Assembly: GCA_964372205.1 (NCBI GenBank)
Contig: CAYJQB010000001.1
Span: 226,967-290,966, forward strand
Source of the DNA: Candidatus Woesearchaeota archaeon
GTDB taxonomy: Archaea; Nanobdellota; Nanobdellia; Pacearchaeales; GW2011-AR1
Length of the DNA: 64,000 nucleotides
Direction of reading: 5' to 3'
Made by a program: the position numbers and the translations under genes. Positions 33,586 through 60,529 of the stretch are shown one piece after another (position 1 is the first letter of the stretch; each line of letters starts with the position of its first letter). The notes under the pieces are model-generated. The model saw only the letters and a program-made list of their open reading frames with translations. It ran no database searches and had not been told where the DNA came from.

Positions 33586-33700
33586 ATGCAAAAGTGTATT
33601 ACGCCCGGACCAAACACAGCACACTTTTGCATAATCACTGGGACTCGTATTGATTAGCTTATTTCTTTCTAGTGGCTAGGATTTTTAAGCATTCTCGAGA
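33586..33700. repeat. intergenic repeat copy A: 12-bp perfect hairpin enclosing a 14-nt copy of the tRNA-Ser 3' end, plus motif2 (gggactcgtattgattagctt) and motif3 (ggatttttaagcattctcgaga)
   Basis: atgcaaaagtgt / acacttttgcat inverted repeat; ttacgcccggacca identical to 38774-38787; motifs shared with copies B and C. Confidence 0.7.
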
Positions 33701-33768
33701 TGGAAGTGATATGTGATTATTTCACCTCAATCGGAAGATTTATATATAAGTAAGATATTCTTACCGGT

Positions 33769-34035
33769 ATGAAAATAGAGCTAACAAAAATAAGCAGTAA
33801 GGGACAAGTAGTCATACCTTTAGACGTGAGAAGAAAGCTTGCCCTTAAGGATGGAGAGACACTTGCAGTTTCTACTGAAGATGACTTAATTGTATTGAAA
33901 AAGGTAAAGAACCCTATGGAAGAAGATGATTTGCGTACTCTTAAGGAAATAAAAGAAGCTTGGAAAGAGATTGCACAAGGGAAATATAGAAAAATGAACA
34001 AAGAAGATTTTCTCAAAGAAATTGAGACCTGGTAA
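33769..34035 (+). CDS. AbrB/MazE/SpoVT-family antitoxin
   Basis: SKGQVVIPLDVRRKLALKDGETL swapped-hairpin motif. Confidence 0.7.
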   Translation: MKIELTKISSKGQVVIPLDVRRKLALKDGETLAVSTEDDLIVLKKVKNPMEEDDLRTLKEIKEAWKEIAQGKYRKMNKEDFLKEIETW

Positions 34036-34281
34036 ATGGTAGAATATATCTTTACAGAAAAATTTGAGAAGGAATTTAAAAAAGCAGACAATTCTATTAA
34101 AGAAAAAGCACGAAAACAAATAAAAAAGATACTTGAAGACCCAGAAACAGGAAAGCCATTAAGATATGACCTAAAAGGCGAGAGAACAGTCTATGTCAAA
34201 CCATTTAGAATAATATATTCGTTCTCGAATAACACAATTTACTTCCTACGATTTGAACATCGCAGCGAAGTTTATGATTAA
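34036..34281 (+). CDS. RelE/ParE family toxin
   Basis: YRIIYSFSNNTIYFLRFEHRSEVY C-terminal RelE consensus; start abuts antitoxin stop. Confidence 0.7.
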   Translation: MVEYIFTEKFEKEFKKADNSIKEKARKQIKKILEDPETGKPLRYDLKGERTVYVKPFRIIYSFSNNTIYFLRFEHRSEVYD

Positions 34282-34293
34282 TAACTAATCCGT

Positions 34294-34352
34294 GGGACTC
34301 TGATCGATTAGCTTCTTTTCTCTGATCTCTAGAATTTTTAAGGATTGTCGAC
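34294..34352. repeat. intergenic repeat copy B (motif2 plus motif3 only)
   Basis: gggactctgatcgattagctt ... gaatttttaaggattgtcgac, about 75% identical to the corresponding part of copy A. Confidence 0.6.
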
Positions 34353-34367
34353 TACTTCCAAGAAGAG

Positions 34368-34955
34368 TCACTCAAATCTCACATTTATTACGTAAGCCTC
34401 TCCGAGAAACAAATCATAACCCTCCCTATTGAGGGTTTTTTCAAATTCTTTTATTTTTGTCTTTGGAGGAGAGTCGCAACGATCTAATCTCCTTTTTAAG
34501 GCCAACACTCCTCCTCGGTCTGCCCTTTGCTCATTATCCGAAATCGGAACGTTTGTGAATTCAAGATTAACCTTGCTTGAAGCATTATCCAGAACTTCTA
34601 ACATTGCTTTTTCTCCGACCAGAGCTTCTAGAGCGTGCGCCTCTTCATGACCTCTAACAAATTCTGTGTGAAGTCCATCCATTCCAGAGCGGTAGGAAGT
34701 TCTTAAGGTAAGGCTTATTAGCTCTTCATTATTCCCGGCTACTACGCGTGTGGCTATACATAAACCAGTTGTTTGCATGTCTGATAAAATATTGTCTATA
34801 GTTTTCAATACAGGTTTTAAAGAAGGTCTCTCTGCTTTCATTCTATAGAGAAAGTAATTTCCAACAGCTCCATCATCATAATAACGTACATCAACACCTC
34901 CAGGTACAGGGACTTCAATTCCTAATCTTTCAAGATAAATTGTGTTTGTCATCAT
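34368..34955 (-). CDS. hypothetical HExxH-motif protein (possible small metallopeptidase, ImmA/IrrE-like?)
   Basis: RGHEEAHALE... with a Glu ~20 residues downstream; local GC visibly higher than surroundings. Confidence 0.35.
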   Translation of the reverse strand: MMTNTIYLERLGIEVPVPGGVDVRYYDDGAVGNYFLYRMKAERPSLKPVLKTIDNILSDMQTTGLCIATRVVAGNNEELISLTLRTSYRSGMDGLHTEFVRGHEEAHALEALVGEKAMLEVLDNASSKVNLEFTNVPISDNEQRADRGGVLALKRRLDRCDSPPKTKIKEFEKTLNREGYDLFLGEAYVINVRFE

Positions 34956-35041
34956 TATTCTGTTCTTATCAAGAGGACGAGTTTAATATTCATATTTAAA
35001 ACTTTCTATGTTGTTACTATTATTAAGAAACAAAAATGGTA

Positions 35042-35151
35042 TTACGCCCAGACCAAACCGAACCCTATCATGCGATATTTTAGGGACGGTTTTATGTACA
35101 AGTTATATACAAGATTTGCTAGACTTTTAGGATTTTTAAGGATTGTCGAGA
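35042..35151. repeat. intergenic repeat copy C: degenerate copy of tRNA-Ser 3' end (ttacgcccagacca, one mismatch) plus motif3 ggatttttaaggattgtcgaga
   Basis: Aligned by eye with copy A and with the tRNA-Ser 3' end. Confidence 0.65.
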
Positions 35152-35164
35152 TAGAATTGATGGA

Positions 35165-35923
35165 TTAAATATACCCTTTCCATTCTTCCTCACAAGGAAT
35201 TTCAAATTTCTCAAACGGGGCCTTAGTCTTCAATGGGAAGAATAAAGACTGGTTTATGTATGCTCTTGAATCCAAATGTGCTAGCAAATTTGCTATAAAG
35301 TAAGCGAAACTTAGATTTGGGATCTCATATCCTTTAAGTGAAAATGGTTTATGTTCCCACCAAACATGCAGAAATTTTTCATCTCCTAAGGCGATGTTGC
35401 TAACTTTTTTAAAAATTGAACAATCAGTTATGTTAAAATAATCTTTTAAAGAGTCTCGAATTGTATTGATAGTGAGAAAGCATTCATAACAAAACAAGCC
35501 ATTGAATATTTTATCATTTTGTGCAACAGTTTCTATTTTTTTGCCATTTTGTTCGCATTTCTTAATAGTTTCTTTGAGATCTGAACCATTCCTAATTGAG
35601 GTCTTAACTTCGATTATAGCTCTGACTATATTCGCAGGAACAATTACAAAATCTCCTTCTGAGAATAAAACAGGTGAACGATCATCGTAGATTATTAGAT
35701 CTATTTGGTTGGTTAATTCTTTTTTTGGATTTATTACAAATCCTGTTCCAATTGAGAGATTTTTTGGCAAAAATCGAGAGATAACATTCTTTAATACAGC
35801 CTCTTTATATCTCCCATCTTCTCCCCAGTGAGCCTCTCCTATCAGACTCCTTACTCTATCCTTAACAGCAATTAATTCTTTGTTTATTGATTCATAAAAA
35901 TTTTTGAAATCTTGTTCTACCAT
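35165..35923 (-). CDS. predicted PD-(D/E)xK-fold nuclease-like protein
   Basis: QIDLIIYDD ... FVIVPANIVRAIIEVKTS gives the D...(D/E)xK arrangement with flanking hydrophobic strands; 252 aa; 7-nt overlap with upstream gene. Confidence 0.45.
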   Translation of the reverse strand: MVEQDFKNFYESINKELIAVKDRVRSLIGEAHWGEDGRYKEAVLKNVISRFLPKNLSIGTGFVINPKKELTNQIDLIIYDDRSPVLFSEGDFVIVPANIVRAIIEVKTSIRNGSDLKETIKKCEQNGKKIETVAQNDKIFNGLFCYECFLTINTIRDSLKDYFNITDCSIFKKVSNIALGDEKFLHVWWEHKPFSLKGYEIPNLSFAYFIANLLAHLDSRAYINQSLFFPLKTKAPFEKFEIPCEEEWKGYI

Positions 35924-36597
35924 TTTTCGTATTGTAAGTTTTCTATATTTACATCCATTTTTTCTTTTTTAATTATCATATCCCATACTATGTACTTTAC
36001 ATCTTTTACCTTAAAATCATAATTATATGGAATGATTATTTTTTGATTTGGAAGAATTTTTCCTTTTTGGACAGGAGCTGTATATAAAACAGTATCCCCT
36101 ATAGTGAAGATAACATCCAAGTTCACATATTCACTATAATCATCTCCTATATTTGATAACACTATCTCTCCCGAAGACGTATGAATTGTGTCATCTAATG
36201 TTTCCTCTAAAGAATTAAACAATGGAATGGATTTAGAAACACAAGTCCCAAATGTGCTTGAGCCACAACCCAATAACTGAGCTGAATAGGCGGCCAGAAT
36301 TATAGAATCTTTTGTTATGGTGATTGCATGATAATCTCCTCTTTCATTGATCTTGTAATATTCAATTTTTGCGCTATTAACTTCCAAAGGAGATGGATCT
36401 TCTCCATCTAAATATCTATCTCCATCAGTGTTTGGGTTTGTTAAGTTTGTTCCCAAATTGAGTTCTTCTTCATCACTTAATCCATCTTTGTCAGTGTCCA
36501 TTGGTTTGCTCACTAGAAAAATTATAGCTAACAAGGCTACCAAGATAATTACAATTAAGCATAGAATCCAGTGAAACAAATCACCCTTTCTATTCAT
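35917..36597 (-). CDS. membrane-anchored protein with thrombospondin-type-3-like Ca-binding repeats (likely start MNRKGDLFHW)
   Basis: TM helix ILCLIVIILVALLAIIFLV followed by DTDKDGLSDEEE and NPNTDGDRYLDGED acidic D-x-D-x-D-G repeats; ATGA start/stop overlap with the upstream small peptide gene. Confidence 0.5.
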   Translation of the reverse strand: MNRKGDLFHWILCLIVIILVALLAIIFLVSKPMDTDKDGLSDEEELNLGTNLTNPNTDGDRYLDGEDPSPLEVNSAKIEYYKINERGDYHAITITKDSIILAAYSAQLLGCGSSTFGTCVSKSIPLFNSLEETLDDTIHTSSGEIVLSNIGDDYSEYVNLDVIFTIGDTVLYTAPVQKGKILPNQKIIIPYNYDFKVKDVKYIVWDMIIKKEKMDVNIENLQYEKW

Positions 36598-36758
36598 TTT
36601 CCATATGCTCCAAAAACAACGGCTAGTACAATCAGTATTCCCATTATTCCGCCAAATAACCAACCAAACACACTTCCAAAAGCAGTGATTATAGCTGTTG
36701 CGGCTCCAGTGGACAAAACTATTATGGCCATTATTATTGTTATTATCAATTTTTCCAT
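36594..36758 (-). CDS. 54-aa Gly-rich double-TM peptide (GlsB/YeaQ/YmgE-like transglycosylase-associated family?)
   Basis: Hand-found ORF MEKLIITIIMAIIVLSTGAATAIITAFGSVFGWLFGGIMGILIVLAVVFGAYGK with GGAGGT Shine-Dalgarno-like sequence 8 nt upstream; translationally coupled to the next gene. Confidence 0.45.
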   Translation of the reverse strand: MEKLIITIIMAIIVLSTGAATAIITAFGSVFGWLFGGIMGILIVLAVVFGAYGK

Positions 36759-36940
36759 TTTACCTTACCTCCATTTTATTTCTAGTGAATAAGAAGTAGC
36801 CTCAGAGGATACCCTCCAGGGTTACCTCTTTTTCTTTCAAAACGTGGTTTGAGAGATATTTATATTTTTCTACTGGTTCTTTAACTAACTTGTATAAATT
36901 TTGTACATAAAAACAGCCCACGAGATGTTTATAACCAGAT

Positions 36941-38617
36941 CTAATTTTCTTGATAAATATTTTCAAAAGAATTGTTTGGATTTCTTCTCACCAAACGAAT
37001 ATAATCTGCTTTTATTTTTCTGGACATATTCTGAACAAATTGAGAATTTTTAAAGATGTTTTTATAGTCCAAAAAACCATCATTTTGTTCAATATATTCT
37101 TCAAAGTCGATATTTATATCTGGAGTAATTAGCTCCCAAACCTTCTTAATAGTTGCAACAAATTTGGCTTTGTTTGTTGTTATACACTCTAAAGGATCAT
37201 CAATAATTTGCTTTCCAAGGTTGTCTTCTCTCAATATCTCTGCTAATACGTGCGAGAAGAAAAAGATGGAAAGCCCGTAGTCTCTTAAATGTTCATTATT
37301 TAACAAACCTGCTTCGTTTTTAACAAGGTCATATACGACCTTCCCAAGATATATTTTATTCGCAGAGATATTTCTTGAGAAAATATGATTATATTCTTCT
37401 CCAAATAATTTTTGTTTAAGATGGGTATTATGGGGTTTACCTAAATAGAAGGCCATAATTACCTGAGCAGCAAAATCTTTTTCAATTATCTCAGCTTCCG
37501 AGTTCAATTCCTCTCCTCGCTTCCTTCTGTAAAGAATATTTCCTTCAAATGTACGTTCAAACTCAGTCTGAATGGTTTTTTGCACAGAATCGTTTGATTT
37601 TAAATCCTTCAAACTTATGGAGTTTTGATTGTTAGTATAGAAAGTTATTTTCTTTACAAGAGGAGAAGTAGGGTTCAATTTTATTATTTTAACAAGGATA
37701 AAAAGATTATTGCTCAATGAATCTCTATTTTCAAAAAATGTTAACATTGATTGACATCCGTTGATTAAGGAATATCCTCCAAGAGTAATTTTGTGATTTG
37801 TTAGGTCCTCAGAGAAGTCTCTACAAATTATTGTAATGCCATTATGATACATAAAAAAATTGTTATGTTCTGAAGTATCCAAGATAGTTTTTTTGATGGC
37901 TTTGTTTACCCTGGTATTCCCAACACCATATCTTACATTTTTATAAAAAAGAGTCCTATCTTGAATACCTTCAAGTTTGACTAACTCCTTTGCTTTAATT
38001 GCATAGGTCCTAACAAGAGTACCATCAGGGAGGTTATATTCTATTTTTGAGGGATTTTGGATTGAAAGGTCTTTTTGAGGGAAGTTTGTTTCTTGGTCTG
38101 CAAAATAAGTATACTTGTCAAATAAAATATTAGAGTCATAACCCTCAAAATCAGTTATTGTGTTTATATAATCTTTCGCAGGAGAATTAAATATTTTGTT
38201 TGTAGTAAAAATTAGAACTTTTTTGTAATGAGTCTTTTCAGACAAGTTATTTCTTTCTACAAGAGATTTTAGCTCTCTATTTGCATCACTGTTGAGTAGA
38301 TTATTTATAGAATCACTACCTTCAAACCAGATCCTTGTTCCAACAAAATTTCTTATGTCTCTATCTCCTTGATCTTGGTTGTTGTTAGGGCTGAATTTTG
38401 ATTGAAATAAGTAAATTGTTTCTTCATCATCATCTACATATAATCCATCAATTCCTTTATCATTTCTATGATCGCACACACTATCTATTGCTTCTAAAGG
38501 ATCAAGCCTAAAAAAATTTTCAAGAAACCATATCAAAAATGCAGAAGACTCTTCTCTACCCGAACTATATTCAGAGACCTCATCCCTCATCCGATTATAG
38601 AATTCAGATTGATTCAT
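36941..38617 (-). CDS. AIPR-family abortive-infection-like protein
   Basis: 558 aa; N-terminal FLIWFLENFFRLDPLEAIDSVCDHRNDKGIDGLYVDDDEETIYLFQSKFS resembles the Mrr-like DG-IDG...Q-K N-terminal nuclease module of AIPR proteins. Confidence 0.55.
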   Translation of the reverse strand: MNQSEFYNRMRDEVSEYSSGREESSAFLIWFLENFFRLDPLEAIDSVCDHRNDKGIDGLYVDDDEETIYLFQSKFSPNNNQDQGDRDIRNFVGTRIWFEGSDSINNLLNSDANRELKSLVERNNLSEKTHYKKVLIFTTNKIFNSPAKDYINTITDFEGYDSNILFDKYTYFADQETNFPQKDLSIQNPSKIEYNLPDGTLVRTYAIKAKELVKLEGIQDRTLFYKNVRYGVGNTRVNKAIKKTILDTSEHNNFFMYHNGITIICRDFSEDLTNHKITLGGYSLINGCQSMLTFFENRDSLSNNLFILVKIIKLNPTSPLVKKITFYTNNQNSISLKDLKSNDSVQKTIQTEFERTFEGNILYRRKRGEELNSEAEIIEKDFAAQVIMAFYLGKPHNTHLKQKLFGEEYNHIFSRNISANKIYLGKVVYDLVKNEAGLLNNEHLRDYGLSIFFFSHVLAEILREDNLGKQIIDDPLECITTNKAKFVATIKKVWELITPDINIDFEEYIEQNDGFLDYKNIFKNSQFVQNMSRKIKADYIRLVRRNPNNSFENIYQEN

Positions 38618-38776
38618 AAATACAAATCAGTAATTGAACTTTAAATGAATTTCTATAATTGACTTTTTAGCTCTTTTACCAGCAAATTTCTTTTGTCATT
38701 TATGGAAAATTATCAAGAAATAACTTGTATAAAACTTGTATATACTCCGTCCCATGATTATCGCACAATAGGGTTA

Positions 38777-38861
38777 CGCCCGGACCAGGATTTGAACCTG
38801 GGAATCGCTTGCGCGAAACGGGATTAGCAATCCCGCGCAGTAACCGCTGTGCCATCCGGGC
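38777..38861 (-). tRNA. tRNA-Ser (anticodon GCT), long variable arm
   Basis: Hand-folded: acceptor GCCCGGA/TCCGGGC, anticodon stem CGGGA/TCCCG with loop TTGCTAA, long variable arm, T-arm CCAGG-TTCAAAT-CCTGG, discriminator G. Confidence 0.85.
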
Positions 38862-38907
38862 ATAAATTGATTAGAAAAAGATTGCTTTTAAGTCTTATTA
38901 TAGATTC

Positions 38908-59629: not shown

Positions 59630-60529
59630 TTAAAGATTACTATGGGCTTGAGGGGGAATAAAGTGCTTCCTCCTCCCTTTTCCATTTTTGATATTCCAGT
59701 ACTTTCTGAACTCGCAAAGTGCCCCCTCGATATTAGTTATAGAAAGATATGGATAATTTGAAAATGCTTTCTCATACGCAATGCTTTCCCATTTTTCTGA
59801 AAGAGAATCTTTTTGCATCTCATATAGCTCATACAGCCTATGCTTAACTTCTTTATTGCTTAATTTCTTTCCATAGATTATTTCTAATCCCCACTTTGCT
59901 CCAGGCCCAACGTTCACAAAGTCGTTATCATTCCAGCCCTGCCTAAAGAATCCTAAGTAAGTCAAATCCGTCCATATTTCACACGCAAGGAACGGACCAA
60001 CCATCGGAATTCTTTTTAATATCTCGAAAGACTCTTCAGGAGTGCTACTTTGGTCTATTCTTTTTATTATTTCACTAGAATTGTTGGAAAGAATTTTCAA
60101 ATTGTTTAGGACACTAACATGTTTATCTTCACCTTTTTTCCCTGAAATAATGTAAGCATTGTTGAACAAAGGTTTACCCAATTTTTTCATCCTATCGAAC
60201 TTTTTTAGGATTTCAGCTTTAACTCCATCGTCAAACTTCTTAAACGGCTCTATCTCCAATTCCTCATACAATCCGTGTCTGTTAAAAAATCTGTAAAATA
60301 CAACATTGAGAAGAATTGATTTCCTGTCACTCAATTTGTTTAGTTTTTTCAATAAATAAATGGTGCACTTGTCAAGCTCCCTATACATATTGATTACTTT
60401 ATATTTCTGTAGAATTTTATCCTCAGTCCAAGGGGAACGTTCTTTTAGAACAAATCTCTTATGCCAAATTAAATGTCTTCTGTAAATGAAATCAAAAAAC
60501 TCTTGTTTTAAATTTTCTCGCACAGGCAT
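59630..60529 (-). CDS. 299-aa protein resembling the alpha-glutamyl/putrescinyl thymine pyrophosphorylase (aGPT-Pplase) / DNA base hypermodification family; assignment tentative
   Basis: N-terminal FFDFIYRRHLIWHKRF...PWTEDKILQKYKVINMYRELDKCT resembles the conserved FxxERHxI...PWTxDxIL..Y.F.NVYRExD block of that family (from memory); start codon overlaps the nusA stop. Confidence 0.4.
   Translation of the reverse strand: MPVRENLKQEFFDFIYRRHLIWHKRFVLKERSPWTEDKILQKYKVINMYRELDKCTIYLLKKLNKLSDRKSILLNVVFYRFFNRHGLYEELEIEPFKKFDDGVKAEILKKFDRMKKLGKPLFNNAYIISGKKGEDKHVSVLNNLKILSNNSSEIIKRIDQSSTPEESFEILKRIPMVGPFLACEIWTDLTYLGFFRQGWNDNDFVNVGPGAKWGLEIIYGKKLSNKEVKHRLYELYEMQKDSLSEKWESIAYEKAFSNYPYLSITNIEGALCEFRKYWNIKNGKGRRKHFIPPQAHSNL

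Follow-up and report, generated by a model that had tools for sequence, protein, structure and literature searches.

Do three genes that overlap one another on the same strand, and that encode two membrane proteins and a nuclease-like protein, constitute a single system, or are they independent cargo that has come to lie side by side? This question is raised by a stretch of 64,000 nt from Candidatus Woesearchaeota archaeon (assembly GCA_964372205.1, contig CAYJQB010000001.1, positions 226,967-290,966 of the forward strand), hereafter the window. On its minus strand lie, in the order of transcription, the genes for a 54-aa Gly-rich peptide with two transmembrane (TM) segments in a helical hairpin (pep54, 36758..36594), for a 226-aa membrane-anchored calcium-repeat protein (the TSP3 protein, 36597..35917) and for a 252-aa NucC-fold PD-(D/E)xK protein of family DUF6602 (35923..35165). 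A sequence-only reading of this locus had proposed that the three genes form a single functional unit and a candidate new defence or effector system. Our analysis indicates that the locus is most probably an accreted, variable defence island at a tRNA-Ser gene of a DPANN archaeon, in which the three genes are independent cargo and not a three-gene system.

The packing on which that proposal was built is indeed present. The TGA of pep54 (36596..36594) and the ATG of the TSP3 gene (36597..36595) share the letters ATGA, a 4-nt overlap, and the TAG of the TSP3 gene lies inside the first codons of the 252-aa gene, in the 7-nt overlap ATGGTAG. A Shine-Dalgarno-like GGAGGT (36772..36767, minus strand) can be read directly from the sequence 8 nt 5′ of the pep54 ATG. 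The window is ∼89% coding and, in a crude gene set based on open reading frames (ORFs), 11 of its 46 same-strand neighbour pairs overlap. In so compact a genome short overlaps are nothing unusual, and they speak for co-transcription but not for shared function; as a result of their close packing, the three genes are probably transcribed together.

The three genes do not occur together in other loci

We compared the locus with 160 loci carrying DUF6602 genes (L012-L171), from both archaea and bacteria, whose products are 35-79% identical to the 252-aa protein. Searches by tblastn with pep54, the TSP3 protein, the product of the AIPR gene that lies upstream of the three genes and that of a 195-aa orphan ORF that lies downstream found none of them in any of these loci. 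Six relatives of the TSP3 protein provided seven distinct neighbourhoods (L007, L008, the P0124 contig, L009-L011, L184, L185 and L186/L187) plus a short fragment (L183); DUF6602 was found in none of the seven and not in the fragment, and in three of the seven the downstream gene is convergent. The two closest relatives of pep54 adjoin either a low-molecular-weight phosphatase gene (L172/L173) or a gene for an uncharacterized soluble protein (L174), not a TSP3 gene. As a result, the order peptide, TSP3 protein, nuclease was observed in 0 of the 160 DUF6602 loci, in 0 of the 7 TSP3-family neighbourhoods and in none of the contexts of the two close pep54 homologues (three contigs). The three genes are thus not syntenic in any other locus examined, which is the very observation that the sequence-only reading had named as refuting its single functional unit, and this part of the proposal falls.

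The neighbours of the DUF6602 genes themselves are heterogeneous. For the closest homologue, 79% identical (L092), the upstream neighbour is RadC, divergently oriented at a distance of 71 nt, and the downstream neighbours are a toxin-antitoxin pair in convergent orientation. Clustering of the genes within 3 kb of DUF6602 returned C5-methyltransferases (13 loci), integrases (10), DUF4145 (10) and subunits of type I restriction-modification (R-M) systems, and no constant partner gene among the clustered neighbours of the 160 loci. A pairing of the peptide with the TSP3 gene was seen in one or perhaps two other loci, a suggestive but slight recurrence, and never includes the nuclease. In L008, the sole contig that repeats the overlapping pair, a 40%-identical peptide overlaps the start of the TSP3 homologue by 4 nt, and in L007 the TSP3 homologue is preceded, at a distance of 48 nt, by a two-TM ORF of weak similarity to the peptide; no peptide was found 5′ of the TSP3 gene in L009-L011, L184-L187 or L183.

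Other arrangements were observed around DUF6602 genes. Several DPANN homologues with 61-66% identity are preceded by a different pair, consisting of a 183-192-aa nuclease-like gene with a PDF...EVK motif and a divergent small winged-helix-like gene. The PDF...EVK gene, which has weak VRR-NUC/TnsA matches, is located 5′ of DUF6602 in L013 (5029-5846), L094 (1235-2052), L095 (5136-5970), L096 (5399-5977) and L098 (18-835); the winged-helix-like gene (∼70-92 aa) lies upstream in four of these five loci and also in L016 and L093, while L096 has a different small divergent gene. Together with DUF6602, these genes may make up a small cassette with a layout different from that of the window. In five other cases, a second, divergent DUF6602 paralogue stands beside the first (L042, 3728-4576; L043, L125, L126 and L152), four times upstream and once downstream, raising the possibility of hetero-oligomeric nucleases. 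Also, a DUF4145 gene immediately follows DUF6602 in L078 (6742-7380) and in nine further Bacteroidota loci, 10 in all, and another immediately precedes the TSP3-family gene in L009-L011 (306-923 in L009), DUF4145 being the sole family common, indirectly, to the DUF6602 and TSP3-family neighbourhoods.

The 252-aa protein has the fold and catalytic core of NucC

As judged from profile matches and a predicted structure, the 252-aa protein is a full-length NucC-fold PD-(D/E)xK protein of family DUF6602, in agreement with the nuclease-like core (D75...E105-V-K107) that the sequence-only reading had recognized. Its match to Pfam DUF6602 (PF20247) reaches 78.8 bits, against a cut-off of 27, and the domain is carried by 120 of 120 homologues among the matches listed. 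PADLOC profiles for ‘PD_DExK, Cas-associated’ (1e-27) and NucC (9e-18) also matched, and a profile of 37 relatives retrieved NucC chains from the PDB sequences (3e-12 to 1e-6, residues 31-123). Using the AlphaFold2 monomer model (predicted local distance difference test score, pLDDT, 88.3; predicted TM-score, pTM, 0.87) as a Foldseek query against the PDB, all 14 matches with E <0.001 were NucC (E 6e-14 to 1e-10), over 229-253 aligned columns with TM-scores of 0.58-0.72 and 16-20% identity; the next matches were to the restriction enzyme BbvCI, at E ∼0.03. In the alignment with E. coli NucC, the counterparts of D75, E105 and K107 are D73, E104 and K106, so that the active-site motif reads ID-x29-EVK versus ID-x30-EAK in NucC. 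All of the 151 DUF6602 members extracted from the retrieved loci have D75 and K107, and 150 of them have E105.

The nearest relatives of the protein come from metagenome-assembled genomes (MAGs) of Pacearchaeota, Woesearchaeota and Nanoarchaeota. In the metagenome scan the single 252-aa sequence found no relative, whereas the alignment of the family (A1) used as a query succeeded. No match to the nuclease came from a tblastn search of 50,697 phage records, and the scans of viral contigs for DUF6602 returned distant matches to the N-terminal core only.

This type of nuclease has been described before. A preprint on Vibrio integron cassettes presents ‘Damona’, from Vibrio cholerae, as an anti-phage cassette; the Damona protein contains DUF6602, has secondary matches to Cas PD_DExK and to a CBASS small endonuclease, and is related to NucC; most systems in that preprint are single genes (bioRxiv 10.1101/2024.07.02.601686). 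Hence, DUF6602 is an already known family of NucC-like stand-alone nucleases, and the protein of the window is a further member of it in a defence island. What survives of the proposed new defence system is therefore one clear defence component, the nuclease, of a family already described; the three-gene system is not supported.

Two residues essential for NucC activation are not conserved

In its account of NucC, the preprint of Lau et al. describes a homotrimer that forms a hexamer upon ligand binding and belongs to a fold related to type II restriction enzymes; cyclic tri-AMP (cAAA, or cA3) is bound through Arg53, Tyr81 and Thr226, a gate loop closes and is latched by His136/Tyr141, and any single mutation of these pocket or latch residues abolishes activation (bioRxiv 10.1101/694703). 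Our comparison of the cA3 pocket covered Arg53 and Tyr81 of the three pocket residues. NucC R53 aligns to N55 of the 252-aa protein, and Arg occupies this position in 6 of the 151 relatives. NucC Y81 is matched by S83 or by a deletion of one residue; Ser is found in 12 of the 13 members of the window's clade, and Tyr or Phe in 58 of the 151 DUF6602 members overall. In the model, the helix 113-128 is joined to the strand 140-148 by 11 residues (129-139, pLDDT ∼71) that include neither His nor Tyr; this region varies in length across the family and can be likened to the NucC gate loop by its position in the fold only.

We then looked for a source of the ligand. No CD-NTase, HORMA or Cas10 protein was detected in the 64-kb window by PADLOC on its 71 proteins and by Pfam scans. 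In total, 35 PADLOC families matched, and all but two trace to the CDC48, SMC/Rad50, AIPR or DUF6602 protein, the two others being PDC-S10 (4e-14) and C3a212 ‘SNc+LTD’ (4e-10). Neighbour clustering of the 160 DUF6602 loci revealed no recurrent cyclase neighbour, and most loci are without any. Taken together, alignment and model assign to the 252-aa protein the fold and chemistry of NucC, but not the attributes by which a cA3-activated NucC would be recognized.

In a Methanococci MAG, a DUF6602 gene is part of a type III CRISPR-like operon (L101, 122-4958), with a weakly Cas10/Cmr2-like gene on one side and two RAMP genes on the other; where NucC has Tyr81, the DUF6602 protein encoded there also has a Tyr. 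Some DUF6602 members may thus be CRISPR-linked; that of the window is not.

pep54 and the TSP3 protein are predicted envelope proteins

The small peptide, whose coding nature was part of the sequence-only reading, proved to be conserved. It is called by external gene callers as 45 or 54 aa, and its homologues P0127 and P0128, which exist as called genes, are 66-71% identical to it. The family alignment has the common motif STGA...AFGS..GW.FGGIMG.LIVL and dN/dS is ∼0.12-0.26. By these sequence measures, pep54 is a genuine coding gene. According to hydropathy, two segments together cover nearly the whole peptide, leaving ∼5 residues in the cytoplasm.

The second gene had been read as encoding a membrane-anchored protein with DxDxDG calcium-binding repeats, and this holds. 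Hydropathy and the AlphaFold2 model place a single TM helix at about residues 8-30, in type II orientation, behind a short basic N-terminus (MNRKGD) of ∼7 cytoplasmic residues. The helix is followed by two invariant DxDxDG-type calcium motifs, DTDKDGLSDEEE and NPNTDGDRYLDGED, and by a C-terminal beta-sandwich modelled with pLDDT 83-93. This sandwich is interrupted by a hydrophobic, Gly/Ala-rich loop with a conserved Cys pair (window 36210-36312, residues ∼96-129) of low pLDDT, which is missing from the P0125/P0126 subfamily and which might insert into a membrane. A longer TTG start of the gene (248 aa, 36663) was rejected, because all homologues start at the MNK/MNR position.

The Pfam profile TSP3_bac (PF18884) scores 24.4 bits on the 226-aa protein versus a cut-off of 25; the calcium-motif residues are invariant in the six family members, and PF18884 is annotated in four of the five homologues. 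These five were all that a search of 5.8 billion proteins returned, and the family of the C-terminal domain comprises 36 cluster representatives in 1.84 billion. The family is very small and probably archaeal. Scans of viral contigs gave matches to the repeats only. One member (L184, 1576-2615) adjoins a ThsB-type TIR gene and a gene for a protein with an Rx4H motif, a defence-like context.

Both products are thus predicted to be envelope proteins, with most of the larger one outside the cell, and a surface or adhesion role is likely for the two. Given how few residues either protein would expose to the cytoplasm, we infer that there is almost no surface through which they could contact a soluble nuclease.

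The locus is a probable island bounded by copies of a tRNA-Ser 3′ end

The tRNA-linked island next to an AIPR Abi homologue, also part of the sequence-only reading, could be delimited. A tRNA-Ser (GCU) gene occupies 38776..38862 on the minus strand (ARAGORN; Rfam tRNA, 56.3 bits), and its 3′ end forms the left boundary, which resembles an attachment (att) site. The 14-mer TTACGCCCRGACCA, that is, the tRNA-Ser 3′ end plus 2 nt, has three copies in the same orientation in the window versus 0.02 expected by chance. Copy 1 (TTACGCCCGGACCA, 38774..38787, plus strand) is at the tRNA, copy 2 (TTACGCCCAGACCA, 35042..35055, plus strand) at the right end of a 3.7-kb segment and copy 3 (33599..33612, plus strand) at the outer end of a second segment. 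Segment 1 (35056-38773, 3.7 kb) contains the AIPR gene, pep54 and the genes for the TSP3 protein and the DUF6602 nuclease, and segment 2 (33613-35041, 1.4 kb) contains the 195-aa orphan ORF and a toxin-antitoxin pair. The GC content of the AIPR, TSP3 and DUF6602 genes is 0.31-0.32, compared with 0.365 for the window. Pfam, PADLOC and NCBIfam scans of the region from 33.6 to 38.8 kb detected no integrase, which suggests that the segments are decayed island remnants.

The three genes are thus flanked upstream by the AIPR/AbiU-like abortive-infection gene and the tRNA-Ser gene, and downstream by the orphan ORF and an AbrB/MazE-RelE/ParE pair, so that the nuclease gene lies between AbiU and the toxin-antitoxin pair. 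The AIPR gene (36941..38617, minus strand, 558 aa) matches Pfam AIPR (PF10592) with 123.6 bits against a cut-off of 25 (1.7e-35), PADLOC AbiU (1.7e-38) and the PHROG ‘Abi alpha-like’ (1.1e-53). It was considered as a fourth member of the proposed system and rejected, as it is missing from all 160 DUF6602 loci. In segment 2, the orphan ORF (34368..34955, minus strand, GC 0.39) had no match in Pfam, PADLOC, NCBIfam or PHROGs. The plus-strand pair consists of an AbrB/MazE-like antitoxin (33769-34035; NCBIfam AbrB, 9e-12) and a RelE/ParE/YafQ-like toxin (34036-34281; YafQ/RelE, 2e-6 to 2e-5), and precomputed Pfam annotation in L003 labels such a pair ParE_toxin and MazE_antitoxin.

A 25-nt repeat, TAGGATTTTTAAGGATTGTCGAGAT, is located just 3′ of the DUF6602 stop codon (35128..35152, plus strand), with a second copy at 33677-33701 and a partial one at 34330-34351 (0 expected by chance); in both segments it closely follows the 3′ end of a gene. 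Since Rfam found only the tRNA in 33.0-39.5 kb, the repeat does not correspond to a known RNA; a terminator and a remnant of the end of an element are candidate roles.

The remaining window consists of archaeal housekeeping genes: CDC48, TrmB, a class I tRNA synthetase, EF-1alpha, EF-2, RNA polymerase, LigD modules and Rad50/SMC. Beside the ribosomal protein and RNA polymerase genes of this DPANN archaeon there is also a gene (59630-60529, minus strand) for a 299-aa protein with a Pfam match (2.4e-50) to HMUDK_hel, the helical domain of 5-hydroxymethyl-dU DNA kinase, a family linked to the hypermodification of thymidine in the DNA of phages.

Discussion

We regard independent cargo in a tRNA-Ser island as much the best explanation of the locus, although several observations weigh against it. 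The three genes point the same way, overlap by 4 and 7 nt and leave no room for a promoter before the nuclease gene, so that they are likely co-transcribed in this genome and perhaps translationally coupled; all three are inside one att-bounded segment and must have arrived or persisted together; and the same arrangement is found in contigs of several metagenome samples, and is thus stable at least in this lineage. In addition, very divergent TSP3 analogues would escape tblastn, and DNA cleavage and virus protection by this DUF6602 protein are expected from sequence, model and the analogy with Damona, which was tested in bacteria. The same features, together with the single Shine-Dalgarno-led first gene, the lack of any internal intergenic region and the published precedent of ‘Epona’, described as a nuclease joined to a two-TM holin-like domain, would favour one lineage-specific system, in which, for example, a membrane sensor or holin-like part controls or complements a NucC-like DNase. 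We consider such a system quite unlikely: neither DUF6602 loci nor TSP3-family neighbourhoods nor the contigs of pep54 homologues show any co-occurrence, a nuclease 79% identical stands alone, the membrane proteins are nearly devoid of cytoplasmic residues, and overlaps are frequent in this genome. Furthermore, a TATA-like box ∼20-30 nt 5′ of the nuclease ATG, as in the DPANN homologues of the nuclease, is a weak hint of its own leaderless promoter, given that the genome is AT-rich and that the letters of the box also code for conserved TSP3-protein residues. A variant, in which a stand-alone NucC-fold nuclease without a cA3 pocket has been captured into an operon with the peptide and the calcium-binding protein and a system found in this lineage alone is newly born, seems to us very unlikely; if true, a sensor of envelope damage or virus attachment, or a holin-like peptide, would be coupled to DNA degradation.

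The nuclease on its own also admits other readings. It would be unlikely, in our view, to be a true NucC-type homotrimer switched on by cyclic oligoadenylate from an enzyme acting in trans, either a CD-NTase or the Cas10 of a type III CRISPR system, with its gene in another part of the genome. The NucC fold over the full length, the PADLOC NucC matches and the Methanococci relative (∼47-50% identity) between a weakly Cas10-like gene and RAMP genes are in favour of it, but two residues essential for NucC activation are replaced (R53 by N55 and Y81 by S83), CD-NTase, HORMA and Cas10 are missing within the 64-kb window, and a cyclase neighbour is missing in most of the 160 family loci. That the protein is the restriction endonuclease of an R-M system with its methyltransferase elsewhere appears highly improbable. 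Such a role would fit the kinship of the NucC fold with type II restriction enzymes, the presence of BbvCI and SgrAI among the weak Foldseek matches, and the C5-methyltransferase adjacent to DUF6602 in 13 of the 160 loci, with type I R-M subunits in several; however, neither the island nor the scanned genes of the window include a methyltransferase, most family loci are without an adjacent one, and methyltransferases are common in defence islands anyway.

Under the independent-cargo explanation, the four genes of segment 1 (AIPR/AbiU, peptide, TSP3 protein and DUF6602 nuclease) would evolve independently of one another. The nuclease would be a stand-alone NucC-fold effector of the Damona kind, cleaving DNA in a Mg2+-dependent manner through D75, E105 and K107, with invading DNA, or the cell's own DNA in abortive infection, as its presumed target, and its trigger would probably not be cA3. 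The apparent operon would then be an effect of packing, which calls for caution against inferring function from overlaps alone in DPANN archaea. NucC-fold nucleases without cA3-binding residues or a cyclase partner are widespread as stand-alone genes, DPANN included, which raises the question of their switch. The small calcium-repeat surface family, sometimes accompanied by a two-TM peptide, could bear on how episymbionts deal with their envelope or their hosts. Finally, the locus would be a clear instance, in a reduced archaeal genome, of integrations at tRNA-Ser that lie in tandem, have decayed and hold defence genes.

Comparison with known systems places each component. The island is like tRNA-targeted integrative islands in that direct repeats of a tRNA 3′ end bound low-GC cargo with Abi, nuclease and toxin-antitoxin genes, and unlike them in the absence of an integrase and in its very short segments (3.7 and 1.4 kb). 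The 226-aa protein shares with bacterial TSP3-repeat (PF18884) surface proteins the DxDxDGxxDxxE calcium motifs outside the membrane, ahead of a beta-sandwich domain; it differs from them in a C-terminal domain that forms a very small family with a hydrophobic Cys-pair loop, and in its pairing with a two-TM peptide, in two loci only. With the type II enzymes SgrAI, NgoMIV and BbvCI, the 252-aa protein has in common the PD-(D/E)xK core and the metal-binding D...ExK, and some DUF6602 members lie beside methyltransferases, but the structural similarity is weak (Foldseek E ∼0.03 or worse) and no methyltransferase is adjacent here. It is closer to the cA3-activated NucC of type III CBASS and some type III CRISPR systems (PDB 6P7O, 6P7P, 6Q1H, 6UXF and 7ZGV), which it resembles in whole-protein fold, in size (∼250 aa) and in the sequence core, LP...IDx(29)EVK versus IDx(30)EAK. 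Unlike NucC, it lacks the conserved cA3-contacting Arg53 and Tyr81, belongs to the separate Pfam family DUF6602, and has no cyclase partner in the window, as is the case for most family loci. Damona, compared at the level of domains, has the same Pfam domain and the same secondary matches as the 252-aa protein, and likewise stands alone without a fixed partner gene in a mobile or defence context; the host here is instead a DPANN archaeon, and the protection against viruses reported in that source concerns the Vibrio cassette only.

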